NCBI GenBank assembly: GCA_000165345.1
Contig: CM000435.1
Span: 64,001-128,000 of the forward strand
Length of the DNA: 64,000 nucleotides
Direction of reading: 5' to 3'
The position numbers were made by a program, and so were the translations under genes. The number at the start of each line of letters is the position of its first letter. The stretch's first letter is position 1. The notes beneath the pieces are model-generated. The model was not told where the DNA came from and did no database searches. It saw only the letters and a program-made list of their open reading frames with translations. Shown here piece by piece: positions 11,766 through 55,675 of this stretch.

Positions 11766-12754
11766 ATTAAAAAGAATTCTTTGCTACCTTACTCTTAATA
11801 TATACTCTTAAACTTATAAAGTGAATTAATTTTCTTCTTTATTATAATATTAATAGAGTTTCAACCATTCAAAACGCTTTAATAATTTCAAAGAAGAGCT
11901 AAAACCTCAACAGTTTCAAGAATCCACACACATTATCTCAATTATTGCAAATAGATATCTTTTCAGTTTTTGAAATGATGAATATTACTCCTAAAATAAA
12001 TATTATTTCTTAGTTCCCGCCTAAAGTTGATTACACTTAAGTGCATATAAATGAGAAAAACAAATTAGCAAGAAATAGAAAGGGTAATTTCAATAGTAAA
12101 TGTGAGAGAAAGCAGGGGATAAGTTATAATGAGAGTAAAAATAGAAATGGTTTATTCTAAATAGAAAGGTTTAAGAAAAAAGATATTGATTTGGCATTAA
12201 CAGAAAATCCCAATTTTTATGAAAAAAAGTGGAGCTAAGAGAATATTGGCATTTATTTTATTGTTTTTGTCTAATTTTCGCAATAAATGTTAGTTTTGTG
12301 CTATATTATAAGATTAATTAATAATTATTGCTTACAAAAACGTCTAACTCTTATTTGCATGCTTGCATGCACTAATTACCGGCATAAAATAAATTACGTG
12401 GCAAAGAAAATGAAGAAAATGATAAAAATTGCATGCAAAAATAAAAAATTTCTTAACTGGTAAATGTAATGTAAATTTCTGTATTCTTTTAGGAGTCTTC
12501 CCATGACTCTTCCGAACTGAAGCCCTACCTCTTAAAGTTATCCCTAAAATAAACTACAAGGAATCTAATTAATACAGAGACAAATTGATAAATGATTAGC
12601 AATCCGGAGTAAATAAGTGGCCTCTCTAAAACGAAGAATATAAAGATATTATTCAGATTGACAAATGCAAAGAAAACTCTAATATTAAAACAATATTAAT
12701 ATTCTAAAATAAATGTCTAATAGTAGTTCGAATTTCAGGTCTACTGCTCACTGT

Positions 12755-13282
12755 TTACTTTTGGAAAGTAGTTGGTCTGGATGCAGTAAATGTTGAGCGT
12801 AAAGCCTTTGGAGCCATTGGTAACTTTCTGATAGCTGGGAACTTGAGCTTAGAGTTGAAGAACTGAGTAGTCTTTGGTCTCTTTGCAAGCTTAGCATCAA
12901 TTTGAGAAACACGGATAATCTGAATGCTGCTACGTTGAGCACGGTGTGATCCTGCAAGTTCCTCATACATTTGGCTAACAGCTCCAGTCTTGCTAATGTC
13001 TCTGTACTCCTTATACATATATACAACATTTGTACGGCTTCTGTATTGAAGCAAGATTGCAAAGTTCTTTACATATGTTGGTCTCTTCTCGAAAATACGA
13101 GTAACTGAGAGGATCTCACCATTGGCCTTCTTGACCTTATTCAATCTTGACATGAAGTAGAAGAATCTGCTCTTTGCTACAACTTCATTTGGAGCAAAAA
13201 TGCAAACTCTGAAAACTTTTGGATGTGGATTAAGCTCTGTTGGCTTTCCACGTCCAATAACCATATATTGGTTAACTTTCAT
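12755..13282 (-). CDS. RPL18A: 60S ribosomal protein L18a (eL20)
   Basis: MKVNQYMVIGRGKPTE...KVFRVCIFAPNEVVAKSRFFYF...KVKKANGEILSV...YRSRTNVVYMYKEYRD aligns along its length with eL20 (yeast RPL20 MAHFKEYQVIGRRLPTE...). The tracked ORF (12755..13375) extends 31 codons further upstream. By homology the start is the ATG at 13280-13282. Confidence 0.85.
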   Translation of the reverse strand: MKVNQYMVIGRGKPTELNPHPKVFRVCIFAPNEVVAKSRFFYFMSRLNKVKKANGEILSVTRIFEKRPTYVKNFAILLQYRSRTNVVYMYKEYRDISKTGAVSQMYEELAGSHRAQRSSIQIIRVSQIDAKLAKRPKTTQFFNSKLKFPAIRKLPMAPKALRSTFTASRPTTFQK

Positions 13283-14390
13283 TTGTAATGATGGATCTGG
13301 CATTGACTTCATCTTTTTTTTTTTTCTATTCAAACAATATAAATCTAAATAATTGGTTTTAAAATGTTTCTTCAAACCAAAGAACTTCTCTTTATTTACC
13401 TGAGTATTCTGGTAGTTCTGGTCTTGTAATTTCTAGAACTTAATTTTTTTTTTGTATATTCAATATGTATCTTATATACAAAAAAATTTAGACTTAATCT
13501 TGCCAATTATTTCCTTAAATAATACTTTAACACGTCTCAAAAATTTCCTTGTAATTCAATATTTTTAATAATATATTATTAACTTTATAACTTGTTGTTC
13601 ATAAATAATTCTATTGTATTTAATGGTTATTTCTTAACTATTATTTATTATTAAGGACCTTTGTCTCTCAGTCAATTACCGCCCAAAGACATTTGGCGCC
13701 ATGCCTCGAATGTTCATATTTATAATATATAAAAAGGCAACTCTTCAAATAATTAAAGGGATGAAATTACAAGTTTAAATTTCTTTCGTTTTTTCATTTT
13801 ATTCAATTTTTCACTTGATTATTCCTCATTGTTTACTTCTTTTGTGATATTATCTTTTGTTTTGTGCGCTTTATTCATTTTTGAAATGACACTTAATGGT
13901 AGAAGTAAGGTATAAAGAGGTACCATAGACATGAGAAACGTTATTTGTACTCTTATGTTTAGTTGATTAATATTTAGAAATAAATGCGGATTATGTTTGA
14001 TATTGCAACGAGATGAAAGTAAGGGTGGCTTTGATCCGTAATTTGCGCTAATTACTAGAATCGAGAATTACAATGGAGTGAACTTCAGTTAATAGTAAAT
14101 ACATCCGGCTCTACCTCCTATACCTTAGCTAATTAGATTTTTCGTTTAATTCATTTACTACAATACAAAGCTAAGTATTTTACGACCTATACACACAAAA
14201 TTGTTGTAACATTGCAAAAGTTCCTTGTCAATCTAGAAGATTAAATAACGTTCCGTAAAGTCCTTTCCTCTCTACTTCTCTCAAATATATATATGACTTA
14301 ATATAAACATTTCTTTAATAATTAACCTTATTTATTTTTTTTCGAAATTTCAAAAATTATTTAAAATACATGTTTCAAAATTCAATTCAG

Positions 14391-16686: not shown

Positions 16687-18885
16687 TTATATTTCTCCTT
16701 GGTCTGTGTATACTATTTTCCCTGGAGGGTCATAATTGAATTTTGGCTCGATTTTCATAAGTTTTTTGAGAATTTCACATGCTCTTTCATCTTCAGGAGA
16801 CATATTCTCCATATTTTTGCGGGGGCTTTGTATCTGGTTCTTTTCATGAACTTGGTTTTTCTCTCCCAAGGTATCTAGATTTCCAGGTTGAGTAACTCCA
16901 TTATAAGGTTCTTCAATTTGATCATTTTGGCTCATCTTAGAAACTTTATTTTCATTATTTTCATCGAAGGCGTTATTTTCTTCTTTGAATTCCAAGTTAA
17001 GGGGGATCTTCTGATCAGTATTGGAGTTAGAAGTTTGCTCGATCTCATTCTTCAAATCTTCCTTTAGGGGTTCTAGAAGCTTTTCATGAGTAATAACTAT
17101 AATATTCTCTCCATTTTCGTGCTCTTGTGGCTTTAAGTGCAATTCCAATGTCGAAGCCTTCTCTTCACCACTTTGGTCGGAACGGACTGCAACATTTCCC
17201 GCCTGGTCATGTGGAAGTGCATGCAATTGCATGCTAAGGCTATCCTCGGATTTTGGTAGAATGGCGGGACAGTGTTCTGAAGGTGATTCGGGCATACAAT
17301 TAGAACCACATGGTTTTTTTCCGGAAATATTTTCAGGGGGGGTTTGTTGCGATGCGGAGAGGAGGGGGTTTTGATGCAAGGAGTTTATTTCAATATCTGG
17401 ATTCTGAGTCTGGTTCTCAACTTGTCTATGTGAGAATTCAGTATAGCTTGGCGAGATTGTTTGAATTTGACACTCCTCATGAGCTTCTTTGTGAGCCAAT
17501 TCTGCTGTTGTAGAAGTCTCTGTAGTTATTTGTACCTGCGTTTGATTTCTGGATTGCGTAGAGCTGGTAGAAAGTACAGTATTATTTTCATCATTTTGGT
17601 CTTCATCAGAATTACTAGAACGTTTGAGGTCTGAAATAATGATAAATGACTCAGATGTATTGTTTACACTAGAGTTAGAAAGATTTTCCGTAAATTCGTG
17701 ATCGTTTTCTGGTATTGTAGCCTCCCTTAAGCATTGAACTGGATTTATTGAAAAATCTGGGATGTTCTGGCGACCTGAATTGATCAAAGCCTGTTCAATA
17801 ATGCCTTGTTTTTCATCAAATGAAGATTCTTCTGACTGCTTAATTCTATAAAGATCAAAAGAGTAATCTTTAACAAGCAAATCTTCTCTAGGAATTTCAT
17901 CTAACTGAGGTTCTAGTTGCTGTTGATCATTGCCTTTGTTATAGCAACTATCTTTATCCTTATCTTCGTCCCCGTGTAAGAAATCTTTCGATATAACTTC
18001 ATGTTCTTCTTTTAAATTAAACTGGATCGTTTCTTTTCCATTATTATTTTGAATGATTACCTCTATATATGTAATGTTTCCATGGTGAGGCTTTGAAAAT
18101 GATACCTCTTTTTCTCTGAGAGGAATATCGTATAATGGACCTGCAGCAATATCACATCCTAGTAAACCCTTGCCTCCCCAGCCCGAATTAGGAGTTATAA
18201 ATATCTCCCTAGTAACTTCAGTCTCGGTGTTATATACAACAAGAGATAAAGGGACTTTATCATTTTTCTTAACAAATACTAAGAAGTCGTCAGTTGAATA
18301 GAATGGTCTCATTAATGTGCTGCTTGCGACTATGTAATCTTCATTTGATATCAGTCCAGCGGCCTGAGCAGGAGATGAATCTTGAATATTCACAACTCGA
18401 ATCCCTTTTGTAGATATTTCTTCCCAATGGACTCCAATACCGAGCCCAGATATTCGCTCATCGTAACTTAAGAATTGGTAAACTCTAAGGGAATTCAAAG
18501 GAGCATCAAATTCAACCATATTAGACTCAATCCCATCAACAAATGCATTCTTTCCTAGCCCATCCTTTTCAGATTCGACTGAGAATCTCCTATTAGGTAT
18601 ATTACCCTCATTATTTTCATTGTGTTTATGTGGATTAAGTATTATAGTTCTTATTCTGGTCGACAAAGAATTGTAGATATTTATTTTTACTTGATGCCTT
18701 CCAATCCCTTTCAATCTTTTCAAAAAAAAGTCATGAGAAGCATCTGAAACCTGAGTTAGAGGAACTCCATCAATCCCTACAATATAATCAAAGCTTCTTT
18801 CCAATTCTAAAAGTCTTCCAAGACTATTTTCTCCGTAATTGCATACGCGAAACCCTCCAAGTTGTTTGGTTTGCGCACCTCCCAT
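16687..18885 (-). CDS. Golgi reassembly stacking protein (GRASP) homolog, N-myristoylated, with long low-complexity C-terminal region
   Basis: 732 aa with ATG at 18883-18885. MGGAQ N-myristoylation start. Tandem GRASP PDZ-like domains (GIDGVPL..., GLGIGVHWEE..., REIFITPNSGWGGKGLLGCDIAAGPLYDIP matches the GRASP55/65 '[26 protein letters not shown]' block). Ser/Pro/Gln/Glu-rich tail. Confidence 0.75.
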   Translation of the reverse strand: MGGAQTKQLGGFRVCNYGENSLGRLLELERSFDYIVGIDGVPLTQVSDASHDFFLKRLKGIGRHQVKINIYNSLSTRIRTIILNPHKHNENNEGNIPNRRFSVESEKDGLGKNAFVDGIESNMVEFDAPLNSLRVYQFLSYDERISGLGIGVHWEEISTKGIRVVNIQDSSPAQAAGLISNEDYIVASSTLMRPFYSTDDFLVFVKKNDKVPLSLVVYNTETEVTREIFITPNSGWGGKGLLGCDIAAGPLYDIPLREKEVSFSKPHHGNITYIEVIIQNNNGKETIQFNLKEEHEVISKDFLHGDEDKDKDSCYNKGNDQQQLEPQLDEIPREDLLVKDYSFDLYRIKQSEESSFDEKQGIIEQALINSGRQNIPDFSINPVQCLREATIPENDHEFTENLSNSSVNNTSESFIIISDLKRSSNSDEDQNDENNTVLSTSSTQSRNQTQVQITTETSTTAELAHKEAHEECQIQTISPSYTEFSHRQVENQTQNPDIEINSLHQNPLLSASQQTPPENISGKKPCGSNCMPESPSEHCPAILPKSEDSLSMQLHALPHDQAGNVAVRSDQSGEEKASTLELHLKPQEHENGENIIVITHEKLLEPLKEDLKNEIEQTSNSNTDQKIPLNLEFKEENNAFDENNENKVSKMSQNDQIEEPYNGVTQPGNLDTLGEKNQVHEKNQIQSPRKNMENMSPEDERACEILKKLMKIEPKFNYDPPGKIVYTDQGEI

Positions 18886-21039: not shown

Positions 21040-21590
21040 ATTAGTTATATATTAATTACAAACACACAGAAACGCATGAACAAGACTTCAATCTTTCCTT
21101 TATTTCAGTCTTAAAACGATTATTACAATACTTTTTAACTTTTGCCCCTCAACCGCTCTCCACCCAAGAATAATGCCCGCCTAAACATTAATTATTACTA
21201 ATTCAAATATATATATTAGTGGTAACTAATAAATTTAAGAGGGGTTGGATAACAAATTAATGGCCCACATAATTAATAATAATTAGTGATAAGTATTAAA
21301 GAAGAGAGGTACCATATTATTGTTGACACACGTCTAATAGCGGTTATTTTTTAATATAAGATATTTTGCTATATACTAATTCAAAGCACTGTTTAAGGAT
21401 ATAATCAAAGATACTATTTAGAGCTATAGACTGAATAATCATAAATTATTCTAATTATATATATTATTAAATATAGATTTTATTTAAGTTATATTAATTA
21501 AGCGTTTTAACCCCTCTTAAATTTTCCCCCAAAGAAAAATTACCCAACATTAATATTTCGAACATTTCAGTTTTCTTAAAGTTGGAAAGA

Positions 21591-23558
21591 ATGAAGTATT
21601 TGAAAGCTATCATCTTCTCAGTTTTTCTGAGTTTATTTTTAGCCTTCCCAGTTAGATCTAGTGATGAAAAGAAGTACGACGGACCAGTTATTGGTATCGA
21701 TTTAGGTACTACTTATTCATGTGTTGGTATCTACAAGAATGGTAGAGTAGAGATTATTCCAAATGAACAAGGTAATCGTATTACACCATCATATGTATCA
21801 TTCACTGATGATGAGAGATTGATTGGTGAATCAGCCAAGAATCAAGCTACTATCAATCCAGTTCAGACTTTGTTCGATGTAAAGAGACTTATTGGTCGTC
21901 GCTTTAAGGATGATTCCGTCCAAAAGGATAAGACTTTGCTACCATATGAGATTATTAACAAAGATAGCAAGCCTTACATACAAGTTTCTGTTAAGGGTGA
22001 GAAGAAGCAATTAGCCCCAGAAGAGGTTTCAGCTATGGTCTTGGTCAAGATGAAGGAAATTGCTGAGGCTTATCTCGGTAAGGAAGTAAAGCATGCAGTT
22101 ATTACTGTCCCAGCTTACTTTAATGATGCTCAGCGTCAGGCTACCAAGGATGCTGGTGCTATTGCCGGTTTGAATGTAATTCGTATTATTAATGAGCCAA
22201 CAGCAGCAGCAATTGCTTTTGGTTTGGACAAGAAGGCTGAGAAGAGCATTTTAGTATACGATTTGGGTGGTGGTACTTTTGATGTTTCTCTCTTGACCAT
22301 TGATAACGGTGTTTTCGAGGTCGTTGCTACAAGTGGTGATACCCATTTGGGAGGTGAGGATTTCGATCAGAGAGTTATGGACCACTTTATCAAGATCATC
22401 AAGTCAAAGACAGGAAAGGATGTAAAGTCTGACAAGAGAGCCCTTCAGAAGCTTAGGAGAGAGGTCGAGAAGTCAAAGAGAGCTCTTTCTTCAGCTCCAC
22501 AAGTTAAGGTCGAGATTGAAGGTTTGATGGAGGATGTAGATTTGAGCGAAACCTTGACCAGAGCTAAATTCGATGAGTTGAATGCTGACTTGTTCAGAAA
22601 GACTATCGAGCCAGTTAAGAAGGTTTTGGAGGATGCTGGAATCAAAAAGTCTGAAGTAGATGAGATCGTTTTGGTTGGTGGTTCTACTCGTATCCCTAAG
22701 ATTCAAGCCTTGATCAAGGAGTTCTTTGATGGAAAGGAGCCAAACAGAGGAATTAACCCAGATGAAGCCGTCGCTTATGGTGCTGCCGTACAAGCTGGTA
22801 TCTTAGCAGGTGAAGGCGGTAGTGATTTATTATTATTGGATGTTACTCCTTTAACTTTAGGTATTGAGACTGTTGGTGGAGTTATGACAAAGCTCATTGG
22901 TAGAAACACTGTTGTTCCAACCAAGAAGAGCCAAGTTTTCAGTACTTACCAAGATAATCAGCCAGCTGTACTTATCCAGGTTTATGAGGGTGAGCGTCCA
23001 ATGACTAAGGATAACAATCTCCTTGGAAAATTCGAGCTTTCTGGAATCCCACCAGCTCCAAGAGGTGTTCCCCAAATTGAGGTTACTTTTGAAATTGATA
23101 CTGATGGTATTTTACAAGTTAGTGCAAAGGATAAGGGTACTGGTAAATCTGAGAAGATTACTATCACAAATGATAAGGGTAGACTCTCACAGGAAGACAT
23201 AGAGCGTATGATTAAGGAGGCTGAGCAATTTGCCGAAGAAGACAAGCTTGTTCGTGAAAAGGTCGATGCCAAGAACGCACTCGATAGTTATGTCCACTCA
23301 ATGAGAATGAGCATTGAAGATAAGGACAAACTCGCTCAGAAACTCGAGGAGGAAGATAAGGAGAAGATCAAGGAAGCACTCAAGGATGCAGAGGACTTCC
23401 TCAGCAGCAATCCAGATGCTGATGCTCAAGAGATCAAGGATAAGCTCAAGGAAGTTGAGGGTATTTGCAACCCCATTATTGCTGCTGTCTACGGTCAAGC
23501 TGGAGGCGCTGCTGGTCATGCAGGCGGCGACGACTACTCTGGCCATGATGAACTCTAA
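21591..23558 (+). CDS. BiP: ER-luminal Hsp70 chaperone BiP/GRP78
   Basis: The tracked ORF starts at a TTG (21582). The ATG at 21591 gives [23 protein letters not shown], a signal peptide. Hsp70 signatures [38 protein letters not shown]-terminal ER retention signal HDEL (...YSGHDEL*). Confidence 0.95.
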
Positions 23559-24606
23559 AACTAAGGTTGTAAGAGGAACTCCTGTTGCCCTTCATTTTTG
23601 AATTAACTAGGACTAGTCATATTAAGTAATAAACTTTTTTTCAAGAAAATTTTTTTATCTTGCAAATTTTCTCTCAGGGTCTTGTCCACATAAATTCTCG
23701 TGCATGCATTTCATGCAAACTGACTTATGTGGGTTGCATGGCTTTCTCAACGGTATATGACACTTTTGGGCGCCACACACAGTATGTGGAATATGAGCGC
23801 GTTAGTCAGAATTAATAATGTTTTTTGTGGTGGGTGAAAATAGACTAGAGAATTACGTAATACTGAACAGAATTAATATAGCATTATAAAAATGTGTGTG
23901 AGACGCAGTGTTTGGTCTAAATAATTGCAGTCTTGATTGTGAAGGAAAAGAATACAAAACTGAGGGGGGTGGGGAAAGGTAAATTTTACACATACAACTA
24001 ACTCCAATAAATACATATATACATGTATATGTACATATATATGTATACATATATATGTACATATAATATTCAGAGAGAGGAAAACGGTGAGTTTGGAGTA
24101 AAATAGGCAAGATAATAAAGGTATTTGTTTTCAATTCTGTCTAAAGTTACCGTTTTTTGCTCTGGGTTTAAGAATTAATTGTTGAGCTATAAGCAAATTA
24201 CCTCATTGATGAAAGTTTAAGAGGATAGAAGAAGAAATCGAACATATTTTTATCCCAGAAAAAAAGTAGATTAGTGATTATTTGTCAGAGTTATAATCAT
24301 ACAGCTTTTGAAAAAAGAATCAGGTAAATAATGCAACATAAGTAAAATTTGAAGTTACTAATTAAAAACTTTTGGATTAAAAATTATATGAATTTTATTG
24401 CTCTTTCAAGTAATACCAGCAAATATATTTAAATAAAATATCATATTTTCGTTTATTAAGGGCGATCTCTATAGTTTTTTAAATACAGATATTGGGGGAA
24501 ATACTCATTCGGAGATTCCCGTTAACAGTTAAAATATTTCGATATATACTAACTATTACAGGCTTTAAATCATATTCACTTGTCAAAGCCGCAAGAATAT
24601 AGAGAA

Positions 24607-30354: not shown

Positions 30355-30665
30355 GACTCAATTTATACCAAAAAAAGCCAAACACTATTGCTTGCATGCA
30401 ATCTCCACGTAATATTACAAGTTGCATGGCATAATAATCCACATAGTGCATGTTTCTCGCAACCCCACTTATGTAGAATTGACTTAGAAAAAAAGTACCG
30501 AGTCATTTTTTTTTCTCACTTGATTTTAATAGTAATATAATAAATTTCAAAAGTTTCAAATCTATTTCAACAGGAAATAGCAATCAAAGCAAGAGAAGTT
30601 TGTTTTGTTACTAGTTTAATACAGGGAAGATTAAAATTAACAATTGCCGGAATTTTGTGGTCAAA

Positions 30666-31709
30666 ATGAAGTTCTGTCAAAACGTATTATATATGATTTC
30701 AATAATCATTTTAGTGGTTAGAGGAGCACCCACATTGAATGTAAGAAATCCAGGAGAGCATGGTCATCCAGATTCAATGATTACAACATCAACTACTAAG
30801 GCTACACATACATTGAAATCAAACAATCAATCAACTTCAGAAGAATTATTATCAATGAAATCACTACAAAATGAACCTAATTGTGAAAACGCAGTATTCC
30901 CTTCAGAAGTTTTTGCATCTCAACCAAGAGATGACAAAGTTTACATAAAACCATCTACAATCCCAGAATCAGGATTCACAAGAGCAGGATTAACAAAGTT
31001 TACTTCTGCTTTTGGAATTCATATACTTGGTGATTATAGAGTACCTGACGATAAATTATCATATTTAACAGAATTATTAGCAAGTGTCTTAGATAATGAT
31101 CAAGATGGATTGGTAGATGCAACCCAAAATACTATTTTAGATACAATACGTTCATCCAACGCAATGATGGTTATTTTATCTGGAAATGAAGAATCTGTTG
31201 ATAAATTATTGGATCCACATGAAGGATTACCACCAGAGTACTCTTGTATGATGTTTTTACTTGTAGAACAAGCCAAAAATATTATACGTGGTGGACCACA
31301 TCAAAAGAATTGCCCACAAGATTTGGATAGAGTTAATGATAGAGGATTAGGATTTGTTGTAGATTTTATTTCTCAAGCAGCATATCCTGTCACATTTTCA
31401 TTAAATGAAGAAAGTTCTATGAGAATGGAGAATTTGTACAATTCTGCATTAAGAAAGGGATGGTTTTTACCACAGAATATTCCTGTTGCAAATAATGAGC
31501 TTTGCGATGAAGATTGTAAAAGATTATCTTTCCAATCCTGGCTTGCAACTTCAATATTAGACCAAGATAAATGTTCATGCATTAAAGCAAACGTATTCAA
31601 ATTATGTACATCTGAGGAAATCCGAAATATTTCACCAGATGATTTTGCTTACTTCGCTAGTGCATTAAAACGTCCAACGGCATATTCTTCTCCAGCTATT
31701 ATTGCTTAA
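30666..31709 (+). CDS. Hypothetical secreted protein (signal peptide, Cys-containing)
   Basis: The tracked ORF starts at a GTG (30657). The ATG at 30666 gives MKFCQNVLYMISIIILVVRGAPT, a signal peptide. No recognisable domain. Scattered Cys pairs in the C-terminal third. Confidence 0.55.
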   Translation: MKFCQNVLYMISIIILVVRGAPTLNVRNPGEHGHPDSMITTSTTKATHTLKSNNQSTSEELLSMKSLQNEPNCENAVFPSEVFASQPRDDKVYIKPSTIPESGFTRAGLTKFTSAFGIHILGDYRVPDDKLSYLTELLASVLDNDQDGLVDATQNTILDTIRSSNAMMVILSGNEESVDKLLDPHEGLPPEYSCMMFLLVEQAKNIIRGGPHQKNCPQDLDRVNDRGLGFVVDFISQAAYPVTFSLNEESSMRMENLYNSALRKGWFLPQNIPVANNELCDEDCKRLSFQSWLATSILDQDKCSCIKANVFKLCTSEEIRNISPDDFAYFASALKRPTAYSSPAIIA

Positions 31710-32499
31710 TGAATATTAGATTTACTCCACGCCTGAAGATATAATAATTCTGTTACTAATATCATCATCAAAAAGGATGAGAAGAATCTAAGATTTCCAT
31801 TTTTTTTTTCTAAAAATGTATGTGTTGTTGTATTTAAATGCGTTAAATACACCATTTTCATTTTTTTTTCTAAATAAAATAAAATAAAATTTATTATTTG
31901 GTGGAATGGCATTTCAATATTTTATTTATTTATCGCTTTCACTAAAATTCAAAATCTAGGATAATAAAGGGATTTGATGGTGGAATTACGTGTAATAATT
32001 ATTTCAATGAGTACTACATTTTTTCTTTCATAACTTAAAGTAAGTTGGAGTAATTTGGCACATCCAAAGTCTTAAATAAAGCTATGAAATACACCATCAA
32101 AATTACATATTTAATTTTTACTTTAATGATAAAAAAAAATAATAATAAATAATAGTGTGAAATTTCTCTCAAAACTAAAAGACTACCAATAATAATCCAA
32201 ATTTTAGTCATTAGTTTAAAAAAAAATCTTTCACCATTTCGCTAGTTTGATTTTATTGGGCTTGATTTTCATGCTTAATTTCTATTTAAATCATTATCAT
32301 ATTCGTTAATCATCTCTTGTTGTTTTATATTTAAATATATTCGAATTCAAAGTTTAATATAGATGGAACAGATTAATTGATTCTTCATTAAATTCTGCAT
32401 GCATTCTTACATGCAAAATGTAATTGAATTAATAGGTCAAGTTTTGGCGCCAAAACATTTTTTTATTCTTTTTTTCTTTAATAAAAAAAAAAAATAAAA

Positions 32500-33717
32500 T
32501 TATTTATTTAATAGTCTCATATACTCAAAAGAAATATCTGACATATTTCTAATGGGAACAAAAAGGTCAGAATTCAAAAAAGAGGTTTTCTTTTGAAATT
32601 TCTTTTCTTCTAAAAGTCTGACATTTTCTGGAATATTGAATTGAGTTGATTGAACAATTACATGGTTTAATGAATCAAAATATAATCTACAAGTTTTCTT
32701 TAGCTCATCTGATAATAATAAAGTTGAAATATGTGTATAACCAAAAGTTGTTGGTGAAAGTTTTTTTCCCCAATATCTATTGTAGAATCTTTTTAATAAA
32801 CTTAATAATATGCCATTTGGATACAAAATTAAAATTTCATTAAGTTCGTTTTTTAGGTCTATTAGTTTATTATGTAATGATTTTTTTTCTAATCTATTAA
32901 TTAATGCTGAGCAGTTTGAATCATCATTAGGAGTTTCATTACTTTCAATTTGATCAACATCCATTGATAGTGCAGCAGCAGCAATCTTTACACATGTGCA
33001 TCTCGGCTTTAAAACATTATTTTCATATTGTAGAATTCCTCCATTAATAGCAAGTTGAACTAGATGGGACAATTCCCCCAATGATAGATCTTCTAATTGA
33101 GAGATTTTTGCCTTATGTATTTCCATAGCTACTCCATATCTTCCGCCTTTAAATTGATATCTAAGTAAATCAGGCTCAATTTGAGAATTTGAATAATTTG
33201 AATTTAGAGGTATTAATAAAAAATCTGATTCACTTTCTTTTTGATTTATAATTAATTCATGACCTTTGGAATCTATTGAGTAATTATTTGAATTATTTAT
33301 TGTATTTGAACCATTAATATTACTTTCTCCTTTAACACAGACTAAGTTATTAATATATTGTAAAAATCCACTCCATATTTCATGGGAATAAGGATTATTC
33401 GGATTTTTTGGATCAATCCAATGGTTATCTGGAACATTTAAATTTCTAAAATAAATCTCTCCATTACTAAATAATAGGAACTCTTCTTCATTTTCTGTTA
33501 AATCTTTTACTAACATTTGCAAGTTATAATTTGCACCTAAATCTACACGTTCTTTTAATCTTCTAATAAGTTCTTGAAGATGTGGTCTAGTTCTATCTAT
33601 ATAAAGTGATTTAAGTGCATCCTTAATTAAATCCAATCTTCTTTCTTTCCAGAATTCCGGTCCAGGTCTCATTACTACCGTCCCTGTTCCTGTTCCTGTT
33701 CTTGTACCTATACCCAT
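32500..33717 (-). CDS. Hypothetical protein; possible OST-HTH/LOTUS-like RNA-binding domain near C-terminus
   Basis: 405 aa with ATG at 33715-33717. Starts MGIGTRTGTGTGT. The C-terminal segment LKRFYNRYWGKKLSPTTFGYTHISTLLLSDELKK resembles the OST-HTH pattern (..yGkkl.p..fGy.kl.dll). Assignment is weak. Confidence 0.45.
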   Translation of the reverse strand: MGIGTRTGTGTGTVVMRPGPEFWKERRLDLIKDALKSLYIDRTRPHLQELIRRLKERVDLGANYNLQMLVKDLTENEEEFLLFSNGEIYFRNLNVPDNHWIDPKNPNNPYSHEIWSGFLQYINNLVCVKGESNINGSNTINNSNNYSIDSKGHELIINQKESESDFLLIPLNSNYSNSQIEPDLLRYQFKGGRYGVAMEIHKAKISQLEDLSLGELSHLVQLAINGGILQYENNVLKPRCTCVKIAAAALSMDVDQIESNETPNDDSNCSALINRLEKKSLHNKLIDLKNELNEILILYPNGILLSLLKRFYNRYWGKKLSPTTFGYTHISTLLLSDELKKTCRLYFDSLNHVIVQSTQFNIPENVRLLEEKKFQKKTSFLNSDLFVPIRNMSDISFEYMRLLNK

Positions 33718-34520
33718 TATTTCTCAAGTTTGGTAATACTGTTATCTTTTTTTTTTTTTTTGTTTTAAATTTTCAATGATTTATTAATTTCTTCTTGAAT
33801 TAGGGATTAATCGGGAATTATTTACTTCTTTATCAAATGAAATACTTATGTAAAAACTAAATTCTGAATTAATGGAAATATTAAACTAGATTTATTATAT
33901 TCAACTTTATTTTCAATATATTTATTTTAATAATATCATCCATTTTCTCTATTAAAATTTTAAATTTATCTTATTCATTGTAAATTATATTATCCAAAAG
34001 AAAAGAAAATAACGACAAAGCATTAATAACTTCATCACCTAGCTAACTGAGATATTTGCATAATCACTCTTCTCACTAATCAAGTTTTTTTTTTTGTATT
34101 ATAAAACAATAACCCAATGCAATAATTACAATATTACTATCACTTTAATTGTTATATCTTAGGCATAAATATATAAAGATATTATTTTATAATAAATTGA
34201 CTGGACCAATGATTCAATTCAACTTTAATTAAATTATAGGTGAATTCAAATATCTAATAATCATTAACCCAGTTTCTTACTTCTGATTTTTTTTTTCATC
34301 AAATTAAATTTGGTTTAATATATCTTAAATATTATATTCTATAGTTATATTCACTAATGATAATGTTATTGAATTAATTTCAATTCTTTTGAATAAATAA
34401 ATAAATAAATATATATATATATTATATTTATTTATTCATTCATATATATGTTAAGTGTGTCAAATGATATATCAATATTTTCATTATATTATCAACATCA
34501 CTTTTGTTCTATTATTATTA

Positions 34521-34606
<86 letters not shown>

Positions 34607-35422
34607 ATATATATATAATATTATTTATATAATTTTTCCTTATTGCAGTTTTTTTTGTATATTAAATTTTCTTTTTTCTTATTAATGTACTATTATAAAT
34701 ATTTAATTATATTGGTGAATATTATTACCAACCAGTTATTATTAATATTATTATTTTATTTTCAATCTAATTTGTCCAAAAGCAATTATATAATTATTAA
34801 AATCTTAATTATTCCTTTCCAAATAACGATAATTTTACCCCTATAAATATCAAAACAAAAAAATTTTCTTTATTTCTTTAAATCTAAAATAAAATAATAA
34901 TTTTCAGAAAAATTAATTTTTTTTTCTATTTAATATTTTTGTTAGACATATTATATTATGCCTAAGTTACACACACGCATAGTAAATATTAAGTACAGGA
35001 AACCACTAGTTATTATTTTGGAAATTTCCATTTTTGTTTGTAATTTTTTGGTGGAACATTTTTTTAAAAAAATTATTTCATCAATTATAATAATATAGGA
35101 TTTTTTTTTACTACTTTATAATAGAGAAAGATAGGAAGTAAAGAAAAAAAAAAAAAAAGAATTACATGATTTATTTATTAAAAATAAAAGACCGCCCTCC
35201 ACAATAGTAATTAATATATAAATTAAAATTTGAAAATATATATTTGCATGAATTGCGCGCCTCTATTAGAAAAAGCGTTCTAGCGCCAAATTATTGGAAA
35301 AGTAAATAATTACTGTTAATTGTACACGTAATAGTAGTAATTATTATTATTACTGTCACTATTATCATTATCACTATCATTATCATTCTTTTACTTTTTA
35401 AAAACTATATTAGCTAAATCAA

Positions 35423-45186: not shown

Positions 45187-45210
45187 ATGGCGGCAGAATT
45201 CTGCCGCCAT
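45187..45210. promoter_or_regulatory. Perfect 24-bp palindrome ATGGCGGCAGAATTCTGCCGCCAT (paired GGCGGCA/E2F-like half-sites) in the divergent RIO2/CDP-DAG-synthase promoter
   Basis: The sequence equals its own reverse complement. Related imperfect copy ATGGCGGCACAATTCTAGCGCCAC at 19182-19205, upstream of GRASP. Confidence 0.6.
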
Positions 45211-51836: not shown

Positions 51837-52450
51837 ACCAGTAATTAAAACCATGGCCTTGAATGTTATTTTATCTATTGGAAAATTATATTTACTCGTT
51901 AAGCTTGTTTTAAATAACATTCTCTATACATAAAATAATCCAATAAAATTTGGAAAGCAAATAAAAGTTTTGTATTGAAAACTTTTTTTTTGGTTTGATA
52001 ATAAAATTTAACTTGAGAATTTTGGATTCAACTTGTGCTTTTTGGGTTTTTGTATATTTAATTTGAATTTATCTTTTTGTAGAAAACTCCTAAATTAATA
52101 ACATTAGTAAACTTATTTGATTTAGCTTTGTAAAGTATTCTTTTATTTTCATAAGACTCTTTCCATATAAAGATGAATTTTTAAATAGAAAAAAATAAAC
52201 AAAACTCTAAATTTCTAATACTTGATTAATTCCTAATGAATAAAATGGTTAAAAAAGTCAACACAGACTAATGCATTGCGCGCCTTCCATGTGGACGCGC
52301 ATGCAAAAACTTTTTAGAGCACATGCGGAAACGCCAGTAAAAAAAAAGGAAAATCAGTACCGGTGTAAACGTGTGAAAACAAATAAACTAAAAACTTGAT
52401 TGCATGCAAAAAATTCCAATAAAATTATGAATTTGGAGCATTTAAATTAT

Positions 52451-53401
52451 TTAAAGATTAAGGCTTTTTAAGTCTTGGACAAGGTTTTGAATAGATTCAA
52501 CTGATTTAGAAAATAATGATTTTTCGTCATCAGATAAATTTACAATAACAACGTCTTCAATACCATTTTTTCCAATAACAACAGGAACACCGACAAAAAG
52601 ATTGTTAACATTATACTGGCCAGTAAGATATGTTGAACAAACTAATACTGATTTAGAATCTTTCAAATAAGCTTGAGCCATAGCTACAGCTGAAGCGGCT
52701 GGAGCATAGAATGCTGAGCCAGTTTTTAAAAGTTCAACAATTTCACCGCCACCAAATGCTGTCTTCTTAATAATTTCATTGATTTGTGAATGAGTAATTT
52801 TTCCTTGCTCAACAAAATCACTAAGCAGAATTCCACCAATTGTAACTGAACTAGTTAATGGTATCATCTCATCTCCATGGCCACCTACAACAATGGCTGA
52901 TACATCAGATGGCTTTACACCTAATGCTCGACTTAAATTACATCTGAACCTAGCGGAATCAAGCACACCTGACATACCACAAACTTTATTAGCTGGTATT
53001 CCACTCTTTTCTTTAAAGTAGTAAACCATCGCATCTAGAGGATTAGTAATACATATTACAAATGCATTAGGGCAGTATTTACCGACATTTTCTGCAACTG
53101 AACCAACAATCTTTGCATTAACAGTAAGTAAATCTGAACGTGTCATATTTGGTTTTCTAGGAACTCCAGCTGTTATTATGACGACATCAGAGTTTTGTAA
53201 ATACTCATAGTTATTTTCACCAAATATTTTCGCTGGTGACCCAATCAATGCCATGCAGTGATTCAAATCTAAAGCTTTTCCTTGTGGAACTCCCTCAATA
53301 ATATCAAACATATAAACATCTCCTAAATCTTTTTGTCCTAAAAGAAGTGCTATAGTTGAGCCAATTTGTCCAGCTCCAATAATTGAAATTTTCTTTCTCA
53401 T
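52451..53401 (-). CDS. MDH: Malate dehydrogenase (LDH-like MDH, Arg at substrate-specificity position)
   Basis: 316 aa. IGAGQIGST Rossmann motif. AGVPRKPNMTRSDLL loop with Arg at the position equivalent to residue 102. Catalytic GGHGDEM. Paralogous to the adjacent gene over its full length. Confidence 0.85.
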   Translation of the reverse strand: MRKKISIIGAGQIGSTIALLLGQKDLGDVYMFDIIEGVPQGKALDLNHCMALIGSPAKIFGENNYEYLQNSDVVIITAGVPRKPNMTRSDLLTVNAKIVGSVAENVGKYCPNAFVICITNPLDAMVYYFKEKSGIPANKVCGMSGVLDSARFRCNLSRALGVKPSDVSAIVVGGHGDEMIPLTSSVTIGGILLSDFVEQGKITHSQINEIIKKTAFGGGEIVELLKTGSAFYAPAASAVAMAQAYLKDSKSVLVCSTYLTGQYNVNNLFVGVPVVIGKNGIEDVVIVNLSDDEKSLFSKSVESIQNLVQDLKSLNL

Positions 53402-53819
53402 AATTACAGTATTATATTTATAACTTATTTTTTTTAATTATATCAATAGAATTTCTCTATTTTATTGTGATCTATTTTCTTTTTCCCCTACTTAGCTTTT
53501 AAGATACTCATTTCCCACGCAATTATTACCTAAAACGAGGGGCGTAACAAATTCAAATAGCAGGCGGGAAATTTGAACAGCTAATGGCGCGGCAACAAGT
53601 GCAAATTCATGCAACATTTGAAAGAAAATGAGAATAGAATAATACGCATTAAGTTTTTTTTTCTATTTTTTACTAGTAATTAATCCCGAAAACCCACATG
53701 CAATAATCTCAATCAGCCATCTCATACAATAAATGAAAGTTGGATGAGAGAATTTTTTTACATTTTTTGAATTACAGGATATCGCAAACAATATCTTATT
53801 GAAATAAGAAAAAATATTC

Positions 53820-54785
53820 TTATGCTCCAGCAGCTGGTGCATTATCCAACACCTTGGAAATAGTGTTGACTTCATTAATTGATTCCCCAAGAAGCTTCTG
53901 TTCTAGTGGAGTTAAGTCCAATTCGAGAATGTCCTCAACACCATTCTTTCCAATAATTGTTGGAACACCCATGTATATACCCTTTACACCATAATGGTTG
54001 GAGCAGAATGCAGAACATGGAACAACTGCCTTCTTGTCCTTTAGGTAAGCTTCAGCCATCTTAACAGCAGCAGCGGCTGGTGCAAAGTAGGCAGTTCCTG
54101 TCTTTAAGTTATCAGCAACTTCCTTCCATGCTATTCTGGTATGGCACACAATCTCATCAATTTGTTCCTGGGTGATAAGACCTTGCTTAATGAAGGATGA
54201 AAGAGGAACACCACCAACCGAAACTGAACTAGTAACTGGTACCATACCATCGCCATGGCCACCAATAACGTTGGCACTAACATCAGAAGCATTAACGCCA
54301 AAATGTTGTGCAATGAATGTTCTAAATCTAGATGAATCTAATACACCTGCCATACCACAAACTTTGTTATGTGGAAGCCCAGAAACCTTTTGGAAGTGTG
54401 AAACCATAACATCTAATGGGTTTGTGATACAGATGACAAAGGCATTTGGACAGTATTTCTTAACACCTTCGGCAACTGAATCCAAAATACGAGCATTTCC
54501 GAATAAGAGTTCAGAACGATCATCTTTTGGACGACCTGGAATGGAGGCTGTGATAATAACTACATCAGAGCCTGATATATCAGCATAATCATTTGTGCCG
54601 ATAACCTTTGATGTGGAACCAAACATTACCATAGAGTGGGTAATATCTAGTGCTTTTCCTTGTGGAATGCCTTCTGCAATATCAAAAAGTACTACATCGG
54701 CTAAATTGTCTTTACCTACAATATATGCAATATTACCTCCAATTTGTCCTGACCCAATAACGGCAATCTTGCGTCTTTCAATCAT
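53820..54785 (-). CDS. LDH: L-lactate dehydrogenase (MDH-derived paralog with Gly at substrate-specificity position)
   Basis: The tracked ORF starts at a TTG (54824). The ATG at 54783-54785 gives MIERRKIAVIGSGQIGGNIA (321 aa). Loop ASIPGRPKDDRSELL has Gly where the MDH has Arg. GGHGDGM. Tandem to the MDH on the same strand. Confidence 0.85.
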   Translation of the reverse strand: MIERRKIAVIGSGQIGGNIAYIVGKDNLADVVLFDIAEGIPQGKALDITHSMVMFGSTSKVIGTNDYADISGSDVVIITASIPGRPKDDRSELLFGNARILDSVAEGVKKYCPNAFVICITNPLDVMVSHFQKVSGLPHNKVCGMAGVLDSSRFRTFIAQHFGVNASDVSANVIGGHGDGMVPVTSSVSVGGVPLSSFIKQGLITQEQIDEIVCHTRIAWKEVADNLKTGTAYFAPAAAAVKMAEAYLKDKKAVVPCSAFCSNHYGVKGIYMGVPTIIGKNGVEDILELDLTPLEQKLLGESINEVNTISKVLDNAPAAGA

Positions 54786-55675
54786 CTTTAATATAAAAAA
54801 AATAAATAAATGCTTTGAAAACAAAAATTCGCTTTAATTAAACTTAATTAAATAATAGTGATTCTTATCTCTTTTTTTGTCCTCTAATAATTATACATGT
54901 GTGGATTTCTGTACGCAAAAAAATATCTTTAATATCCATAATATTTTTATTATTTAAATTTATCTTTAATTAGGTATGCTTACGTTACTAGGCGGGCATC
55001 ATGTTTTGTTTATTTTAGATTTTTTTTTATTCAAAAATACCATATTTTTTTCTGGAATCTCATTCTTTAAATATAATTCCAAGAAATTATCAATGTTAAT
55101 TCAACTAACCCTACTGACTAGCTTGCTTGCTTGCAGTTTACATTATTTATATACCCTTCGATATCAAAATTTTGATTATCTTAAAGCTAATTGTGATAGC
55201 TTATCCACCCCTTTACCCCTCTAATTATAAGATTTTAATTCTTAATTATTGCATGTAAATACCGGTATGCAATTTTTGCAAAAATAGTCGTATTATTATT
55301 TTTTATATTTTGCATCAATTTTTTTTTCTTTTTAAATAAAAATTGTCCACATTAAATTTTTAAATTACGTGTGAATTTATCAAAAAAATATATATTTTAT
55401 TTCACGGATTCTTGAAATTATGAAATAAAAATTAGGAATAATTTATAAGAACGTAGAAATAATAATAATAATACTAATACACAAGCTATTTGAATGTTAA
55501 AGTATTTTTCAAAATTTAACTGAATTTAATAATTTTGAAAAATATTTTGCAAGTAAATATTTGAGCGCACAGATATAATTAAAAACAAAAAATTAAAAGT
55601 GAAAAATAATTAACTTTTTTTTTTTTTAATCGTTATCAAGGGAATTAAAAGTGGAATATAGATATTTTTATCAAA

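Follow-up and report, generated by a model that had tools for sequence, protein, structure and literature searches.

Why should a stretch of DNA that lies between the 3′ ends of two protein-coding genes carry binding motifs of two transcription factor families? We examined this question in Cryptosporidium parvum, in a window of 64 kb (the whole stretch of DNA analysed; 64,000 nucleotides) that belongs to chromosome 7 and is 99.9% identical to the chromosome 7 assemblies CP141124.1 and CP029786.1. Its base composition and its long ORFs free of introns are likewise in keeping with Cryptosporidium. The motifs are located in a tail-to-tail setting, between a gene for a secreted protein and a gene for an OHA/OST-HTH (LOTUS)-domain protein, referred to below as OHA (Table 1), and there is no protein-coding gene start on either side of them. 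As judged from the sequence, positions 32396-32456 (61 bp) represent an evolutionarily conserved candidate transcription factor-binding module, which consists of two ApiAP2-type sites and one consensus E2F/DP1 site. We propose, with moderate confidence, that this module serves non-coding transcription of the minus strand, from which the published lncRNA Cp_lnc_325 would result, as its promoter or as an upstream element.

The convergent gap and its motifs

The gap extends over 790 nt between the stop codon of the plus-strand gene at 31709 and that of the minus-strand gene at 32500, exactly as the original prediction had stated. Its length sets it apart within the window, where the six convergent gaps free of such motifs measure 53-356 nt, whereas the two motif-bearing ones measure 790 and 614 nt. 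The fact that both motif-bearing gaps are longer than all six motif-free gaps suggests the presence of an extra transcription unit in each of them. On the left, the gap is bordered by the secreted-protein gene CPATCC_0006140, which is syntenic in all species examined and is the sense partner of Cp_lnc_325; no Pfam domain was found in its product.

Table 1. Features of the convergent gap and its flanking genes, with positions in the 64-kb window
Feature	Position	Strand	Remarks
lncRNA Cp_lnc_325 (CPATCC_0006143)	30533..31860	-	1328 nt; placed by its sequence in DataSheet_1 of PMC7840661, 100% identity
Secreted-protein gene CPATCC_0006140	30666..31709	+	Cryptosporidium-specific; signal peptide predicted
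Conserved block GGATGAGAAGAATCTAAGATTTCCA	31775..31799		3′ flank of the secreted-protein gene, inside Cp_lnc_325
Low-complexity T9 followed by (AAATA)n	31861..31898		Adjoins the assembled lncRNA 5′ end on its upstream side
Conserved block containing TTTTCATGCTTAATTTCTATTTAAATCATTATCAT	32240..32310		~100 nt from the AP2 site; nhmmer match in five species, visible in L014
ApiAP2_1 site TGCATGCAT	32396..32404		Exact match to BGCATGCAH; a perfect 8-bp palindrome is nested within
Second AP2-type site TTGCATGTA on the minus strand (TACATGCAA on the plus strand)	32408..32416	-	10 of 11 positions of motif2, ANTTGCATGYA (Li 2021)
E2F/DP1 consensus palindrome GTTTTGGCGCCAAAAC	32441..32456		Perfect 16 bp; GGCGCC core at 32446-32451
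OHA/OST-HTH (LOTUS)-domain protein gene CPATCC_0006150	32500..33717	-	96% identity to C. hominis CHM_7g410

A sequence check placed CTGCATGCATTCTTACATGCAAAATG at positions 32395-32420. The TGCATGCA core therein occupies 32396-32403, and the GCATGC at 32397-32402 is the only one in the gap. Accordingly, just one member of the predicted GCATGC pair could be retained, the second being CATGCA (32410-32415), an AP2-type variant that reads TTGCATGTA on the minus strand. The perfect 16-bp E2F-like palindrome, for its part, was indeed found, at 1-3 nt from the range originally given. The E2F/DP1 site TTTTGGCGCCAAAA fits TTSSCGCCWAA on both strands, and a T-rich tract that resembles motif3 of Li et al. 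is located 3′ of it on the plus strand. Both kinds of motif are palindromic, and firing in both directions would therefore be possible.

In the study of Li et al. (Li 2021, PMC7840661), ApiAP2_1 and E2F/DP1 were the two highest-ranking motifs in the 100 bp that precede 396 C. parvum lncRNAs, and the two motifs (BGCATGCAH and TTSSCGCCWAA, respectively) co-occurred upstream of 17 lncRNAs. Upstream of C. parvum mRNA clusters, they are likewise the leading pair. The AP2 protein cgd2_3490 binds TGCATGCA, and the E2F/DP1 core was defined as [C/G]GCGC[G/C] (Oberstaller 2013, PMC3734150). Among apicomplexan genera, only Cryptosporidium was reported to have retained E2F and DP genes (PMC7840661). The flagged motifs are the two best-known transcription factor sites of Cryptosporidium, and what they form is, as far as its letters indicate, a real but ordinary regulatory element.

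Enrichment and conservation of the two motif cores

Both motif types are far from evenly distributed, being approximately 10- to 30-fold denser in intergenic DNA than in ORFs. The window holds 14 occurrences of TGCATGCA against 0.72 expected, with densities of 0.69 per kb in intergenic regions and 0.02 per kb in ORFs. For TTGGCGCCAA, there are three exact matches, and when one mismatch was allowed four matches were obtained against 0.52 expected. Likewise, five palindromes of at least 16 bp with at least six G/C positions were observed, against 0.37 in simulations. All but one of the 14 TGCATGCA occurrences are intergenic, and 11 of these 13 are located in intergenic regions that bear a start codon. 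The other two are located in convergent gaps, namely the flagged gap and the gap at 51837-52450. The presence of one E2F site near one of the 13 intergenic AP2 sites is, by our estimate (~0.25), not significant in a single window. The strong evidence that the candidate module is more than a product of chance comes from cross-species conservation.

The order helicase, OHA, gap, secreted protein and kinase is kept in C. hominis, chipmunk genotype I, C. ubiquitum, C. canis, C. felis, C. muris and C. serpentis, and no annotated gene is present within the gap in any of the seven genomes compared. Five close species have gaps of 742-799 nt; the gap is longer in C. muris and C. serpentis (940-943 nt) and longest in C. 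felis (1212 nt). Within C. parvum, the module is identical in every assembly and contig compared (L008-L012). The AP2 core TGCATGCA, often in the form of TGCATGCATGCA, is present in all seven aligned sequences, which comprise C. hominis and six further species, include Logan contig L014 and all represent the intestinal clade. The second AP2 site is retained by C. felis as GCATGTAAAATGT, and the remaining species carry a tandem TGCATGCATGCA instead. With respect to the E2F/DP1 site, C. parvum, chipmunk genotype I, C. ubiquitum, C. canis and C. felis all have TGGCGCC; in C. hominis, GGCGCT breaks the palindrome and the half-site TTTTGGCGC is retained. Conservation in five species, together with the C. 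hominis half-site, indicates purifying selection on the E2F/DP1 core. The core alone is conserved and the A/T arms of the palindrome are not, which points to protein binding rather than to a hairpin.

An alignment-free comparison gave the same picture. Just three 8-mers of the gap in C. parvum recur in chipmunk genotype I, C. ubiquitum and C. canis, namely TTAGATTT, TCTAAGAT and TGCATGCAT, and the last of these is the only one that bears G/C. When C. felis was added, the only G/C-bearing 7-mers in common were TCTAAGAT and TGGCGCC. TGCATGCA and TGGCGCC belong to the small set of k-mers conserved in the gap, with a joint chance probability of ~1e-10 each, and none of 2000 simulation runs gave any common G/C-rich 8-mer. 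Apart from these two cores, one further block is the only element of the gap that is conserved across C. parvum, chipmunk genotype I, C. ubiquitum, C. canis, C. felis and the species of L014. The flanks of the two cores have diverged to 35-45% identity, while the cores themselves are kept in position. The module was not found in the gap of C. muris or C. serpentis, even though this gap is longer, and this counts against the proposed promoter function; the C. muris/C. serpentis alignment itself is, at 94% similarity, too close to be informative.

The position of the module relative to the flanking genes differs between species. In five species, it is located 39-106 nt from the OHA stop codon, whereas in C. 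felis it is located in the middle of the gap, ~680 nt from this stop codon, which argues that the module belongs to a unit inside the gap. Furthermore, C. parvum, C. felis and L014 all carry the sequence GCT(T)AATTT to the left of the AP2 sites, at a spacing of 100-125 nt, while the distance from the AP2 sites to the OHA stop codon is 47 nt in L014, 104 nt in C. parvum and ~700 nt in C. felis. The constancy of the former spacing despite the variation of the latter was counted in favour of a unit inside the gap on the minus strand.

Besides the module, the conservation profile revealed three conserved non-coding blocks, at 31710-31800, 32030-32100 and 32240-32310. In the block at 31775..31799, TCTAAGAT is common to all species compared, including C. 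felis. The block at 32240..32310 displays, on the minus strand, AATAAA/AATGAA followed by a T-run, and it could serve as a core promoter, belong to the 5′ portion of the lncRNA or provide the OHA mRNA with its poly(A) region. When C. muris, C. serpentis and C. felis were searched with nhmmer profiles of four conserved blocks, no homologues were obtained.

A published antisense lncRNA begins in the gap

The original prediction had associated promoter-like motifs in this gap with antisense RNA. The identity of the motifs and the existence of an antisense lncRNA in the gap were both substantiated; the transcript is, however, antisense to the secreted-protein gene. Cp_lnc_325, a stranded non-coding transcript adjacent to the motifs, begins in the gap and covers the entire secreted-protein gene in antisense orientation, together with the 5′ UTR of this gene. 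Its assembled 5′ end at 31860 is 536-596 nt from the module, so that neither the 300 nt initially allowed between the motifs and a transcript start nor the 100 bp upstream of a 5′ end within which Li et al. sought their motifs covers this distance. Cp_lnc_325 is not in the S3 motif table of PMC7840661, which means that no significant motif is present within 100 bp of the assembled 5′ end. The flagged sites are the only AP2/E2F motifs between 31860 and the OHA stop codon.

The assembled 5′ end may, however, be a limit of short-read assembly, since it abuts the T9/(AAATA)n tract in which the ENA contig L013 (30573-31939; possibly RNA-derived, unstranded) also degenerates past 31860. Logan contig L010 ends in (TA)n repeats; its end was considered as a transcript end and rejected, such repeats being assembly breaks.

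According to the S5 table of PMC7840661, the expression of Cp_lnc_325 correlates weakly with that of its sense mRNA CPATCC_0006140 (0.18), and more strongly with that of the upstream CPATCC_0006150 (0.73) and the downstream mRNA (0.66). Its VST expression values are 6.4, 6.1, 5.8, 7.1 and 7.5 across the five S5 conditions (PMC7840661).

Several observations count against the proposed link between the module and Cp_lnc_325. The AT-rich, TATA-like tract directly upstream of 31860 could be the real promoter, and the correlation of 0.73 with the OHA mRNA, which is located upstream on the same strand, would also fit read-through. Moreover, Cp_lnc_325 is not among the lncRNAs conserved in C. hominis or C. 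baileyi (PMC7840661), and sporozoite ATAC-seq peaks were reported without AP2 motifs (bioRxiv 10.1101/2025.01.17.633476).

Taking both sides together, the minus strand is the most likely direction of transcription, backed by the documented transcript, the long gap of conserved length, the mid-gap module of C. felis and the GCT(T)AATTT spacing. AP2 and E2F/DP1 factors would bind the module just past the OHA stop codon and would drive, possibly in both directions, a non-coding unit that fills the unusually long gap. The best candidate for its product is the minus-strand Cp_lnc_325, which would run through the secreted-protein gene and be co-expressed with the upstream OHA gene. The true 5′ end of Cp_lnc_325 would then be nearer to the module than position 31860.

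Similar motif clusters elsewhere in the window

The original prediction had described the same pattern at 52270-52420. The gap concerned (51837-52450; 614 nt) is flanked by the genes for a P-type ATPase and malate dehydrogenase (MDH), and it contains two GCATGC hexamers (52299 and 52402), a GCGCGCC box (52279) and a CATGTGGAC element that resembles motif5 of Li et al. The likeness thus extends to the AP2 sites, a G/C box and a long convergent gap near the stop codon of a minus-strand gene, but not to the E2F palindrome, as no TTTGGCGCCAAA palindrome was found in the second gap (52270-52410). In C. canis, conservation extends to CCATGTGGACGC(GC)ATGCAAAA as well as to a downstream block, and in C. 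felis two GCATGC hexamers are retained. No lncRNA is given for the second gap in the complete S5 table (PMC7840661), which means that a lncRNA is listed for only one of the two motif-bearing long gaps in the window.

Clusters of this kind are found 43-180 nt past the stop codons of the MDH gene (52279-52408) and of a gene for an SNF2/RING helicase (35244-35290). The regions 52270-52410 and 35244-35290, for which no lncRNA is listed, are candidates for missed transcripts. In addition, the 5′ end of Cp_lnc_296 on the plus strand (12460) is located 23 nt past a TGCATGCA at 12430-12437, and that of Cp_lnc_324 on the minus strand (23454) is located 247 nt from a TGCATGCA at 23701. At two other sites in the window, AP2 clusters in the 3′ flanks of genes are therefore found near lncRNA 5′ ends. 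The order of AP2 and E2F sites was considered as a cue to direction and was rejected, because the S3 table displays no consistent order.

Alternative explanations for the module

Conceivably, the module could instead, as a promoter, drive a plus-strand RNA whose start at ~32460-32500 would be followed by passage through the OHA/LOTUS gene in antisense orientation. This arrangement would be in line with the general properties of C. parvum lncRNAs, 91.7% of which are antisense, with a bias toward gene 3′ ends and with E2F/AP2 motifs within 100 bp upstream (PMC7840661). The E2F palindrome is 44 nt from the OHA stop codon and is followed by the T-rich, motif3-like tract, the distance of 39-106 nt from this stop codon applies to five species, palindromic motifs permit bidirectional firing, and Cp_lnc_296 has exactly such an architecture in the same window. 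However, the antisense transcript of the 32500..33717 gene that had been predicted was not found: among the 396 lncRNAs of the complete S5 table, which is based on 33 stranded RNA-seq samples, none is antisense to CPATCC_0006150 (PMC7840661). The entries for this gene in S5 are confined to its membership of a cluster and to its place upstream of Cp_lnc_325 as a neighbour, and the table contains no lincRNA flanked by CPATCC_0006140 and CPATCC_0006150. Likewise, strings from 32516-32660 had no match in the lncRNA FASTA file of Li et al.; of all strings searched, those from the middle of the gap and the OHA 3′ end remained without a match, and those from the side of the secreted-protein gene alone were matched. 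A plus-strand promoter would also be difficult to reconcile with the ~680 nt between module and OHA stop codon in C. felis, and it leaves unexplained why the gap measures 790 nt rather than ~150 nt. On balance, we assign this possibility a minor, though real, probability.

A second possibility is that the module is a 3′-end element of the OHA gene, be it a roadblock, a terminator, an insulator or an RNA element of the 3′ UTR, in which case the lncRNA would arise from an AT-rich initiator or through read-through from OHA. At 44-104 nt past the stop codon, the module is probably within the OHA 3′ UTR, the minus-strand AATAAA/AATGAA and T-run at ~32225-32254 could be the OHA poly(A) signal, and both the clusters past the MDH and SNF2/RING helicase stop codons and the correlation of Cp_lnc_325 with OHA would be accommodated. 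What is conserved, however, are the DNA consensus cores of two transcription factor families, and not hairpin arms or surroundings, and a long distance separates the module from the OHA stop codon in C. felis. No RNA structure was found either, with fold z-scores of +0.7 and +0.9 for the two strands and an RNAalifold analysis of the conserved block that gave neither structure nor covariation. To our knowledge, there is no precedent in Apicomplexa for a roadblock or insulator role of AP2 or E2F/DP1 factors, and we consider a 3′-end function improbable.

The modules right after the OHA, MDH and SNF2/RING helicase stop codons might even constitute a distinct class of 3′-boundary elements that stop or insulate the mRNA and re-initiate ncRNA transcription, an idea that we regard as quite improbable. 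If true, it would imply that OHA expression is coupled to antisense control of the neighbouring secreted-protein gene. The correlations of Cp_lnc_325 with OHA (r = 0.73) and with the sense gene (r = 0.18) are consistent with such coupling.

It is very improbable that the gap hides a small, possibly spliced, protein-coding gene or a structured small RNA gene, with the module as its promoter. This possibility is raised by the length of the gap and the conservation of this length, by the conserved blocks at 32030-32100 and 32240-32310, and by two mechanical minus-strand ORFs of 58 and 68 aa. The longer of these, an ATG ORF at 31706..31912, corrects the original prediction that no ORF of at least 60 aa exists in the gap, but it is not conserved and its frame shifts between species. 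Indeed, no ORF of the gap is conserved in frame: six-frame BLASTP matches between species are spread over all frames and change from one frame to another, and the mechanical ORFs are broken by indels of 25-80 nt. Protein-level matches to the gap were not found in C. muris, C. serpentis or C. felis, nor was a remnant of a C. muris-specific 960-aa gene found in C. parvum. In addition, Cp_lnc_325 was retained by Li et al. when transcripts that CPC classified as coding were removed (PMC7840661). As for a structured RNA, neither a covariance-model match nor a conserved structure was obtained: ARAGORN identified no tRNA, Rfam gave no match at the gathering threshold anywhere in the window and, under permissive settings, only noise at E >= 0.6 in the gap. 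A scan for bacterial promoters and terminators, which is irrelevant to Cryptosporidium, gave background counts, and the literature under the gene IDs cgd7_400 and cgd7_410 yielded nothing usable.

Lastly, although an AT-rich genome holds many short palindromes and the single AP2/E2F co-occurrence is not significant, the idea that the motifs arose by chance and have no function is effectively refuted by their enrichment and by the positional conservation of both cores amid diverged flanks.

Relation to known systems and biological meaning

The proposed minus-strand promoter resembles the lncRNA promoters described by Li et al. in several respects, since both motifs match exactly, the module is located at a gene 3′ end, an antisense lncRNA is present in the gap, and the correlation with the upstream mRNA is positive. 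It differs from them in that the module is not within 100 nt of the assembled 5′ end, in that it was not linked to Cp_lnc_325 by these authors, and in that the upstream mRNA of Cp_lnc_325 is transcribed from the same strand, a tandem arrangement that accounts for a minority of cases (54 of 363). With the upstream elements of mRNA genes (Oberstaller 2013, PMC3734150), the module shares identical sequences and a strong enrichment in non-coding DNA, but it is placed in a tail-to-tail gap without a gene start alongside. As in the bidirectional promoters of compact genomes, such as that of Giardia (cited in PMC7840661), the sites are palindromic; here, the documented transcript runs in the minus direction only.

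A comparison can also be drawn beyond the Apicomplexa. The canonical E2F site of metazoa and plants is TTTSSCGC, including the palindromic TTTGGCGCCAAA. The flagged sequence is identical to this high-affinity palindromic site. In contrast to the canonical system, E2F/DP1 binding in Cryptosporidium has been deduced from motif enrichment and ATAC-seq peaks, and the site described here is a candidate.

The motifs, Cp_lnc_325 and the general association of such motifs with lncRNAs are already published. New are the specific conserved module and its proposed link to Cp_lnc_325. The module opens no new mechanism or class, and the practical value of the finding is modest: it points to a specific 61-bp sequence as the candidate promoter of Cp_lnc_325, a published lncRNA that spans a Cryptosporidium-specific secreted-protein gene in antisense orientation. 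In a wider sense, conserved AP2/E2F cores in an over-long convergent gap may be the sign of a transcription unit that has escaped annotation, which we offer as a lead rather than as an established rule.

Published lncRNAs and their upstream motifs

The original prediction envisaged promoter-like motifs at the 3′ end of a gene, from which a transcript antisense to that gene would start. Cp_lnc_296, together with a pair of TGCATGCA sites (12357-12460 region) that ends 23 nt before its 5′ end, is a textbook case of this architecture. For the second published lncRNA in the table, Cp_lnc_324, the closest TGCATGCA (23701) and E2F core (23769) were located 247-315 nt upstream. The malate dehydrogenase gene and the lactate dehydrogenase gene lie in tandem, separated by a spacer that carries E2F sites at 53564-53589; Cp_lnc_297 (CPATCC_0006223) appears, as judged from the CPATCC gene numbering, to be antisense to the second gene of the pair.

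Features of the window discussed in this section
Feature	Position	Strand	Description
Cp_lnc_296	12460..13475	+	Published lncRNA, antisense to gene 12755..13375
GCATGCAATTGCATGC	17219-17234		16-bp perfect palindrome with two AP2 cores, inside coding ORF 16687..18885
Cp_lnc_324	23085-23454	-	Published lncRNA, within 3′ part of ORF 21582..23558
GGATGAGAAGAATCTAAGATTTCCA	31775-31799		66-90 nt past secreted-protein gene stop codon
TTGCATGAA, TGCGCGCC, TAGCGCCAAA	35244-35290		Third AP2-like + E2F cluster
ATGGCGGCAGAATTCTGCCGCCAT	45187-45210		24-bp G/C-rich perfect palindrome, divergent intergenic region
Malate and lactate dehydrogenase genes	52451-54824		Tandem
TTGGCGCCGGCGCCAA	58254-58269		G/C-rich perfect palindrome, double E2F site, 150 nt upstream of start codon 58104

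Three further palindromes bearing G/C are included in the table, and the one at 17219-17234 contains the sole TGCATGCA of the window that lies in coding sequence.

A third motif cluster between the helicase and OHA genes

The third cluster of AP2-like and E2F elements is positioned 135-180 nt beyond the stop codon (35423) of the SNF2/RING helicase gene, with the OHA start codon ∼1.5 kb downstream, and no lncRNA is listed for it in the set of Li et al. 2021 (PMC7840661). The spacer in which it resides (33718-35422) measures 1.7 kb, has a GC content of 17% and contains no ORF. At the same position, C. muris and C. serpentis possess an additional gene of 960-969 aa (L005 2650-5532; L007 2617-5526), a remnant of which was not found in C. 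parvum by tblastn.

The gap between the secreted-protein and OHA genes

In the 790-nt convergent gap between the stop codons of the secreted-protein and OHA genes, the most conserved element after the ApiAP2_1 and E2F/DP1 motifs is GGATGAGAAGAATCTAAGATTTCCA, which is kept even in GC-rich C. felis and C. canis. Candidate roles for this block are those of a 3′-UTR or poly(A) signal and of an lncRNA element. The ENA contig ERZ21846244, which corresponds to positions 30573-31939, is identical to the window as far as 31860. Beyond this point it differs at 10 sites, each time by a change to T, and the switch falls exactly where the T9 tract starts and where the assembled 5′ end of Cp_lnc_325 lies.

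At the site orthologous to 32446-32451, C. hominis reads GGCGCT, as opposed to GGCGCC in C. parvum, by which the palindrome is lost and the TTTTGGCGC half-site remains. This substitution may make the regulation of this locus differ between C. parvum and C. hominis.
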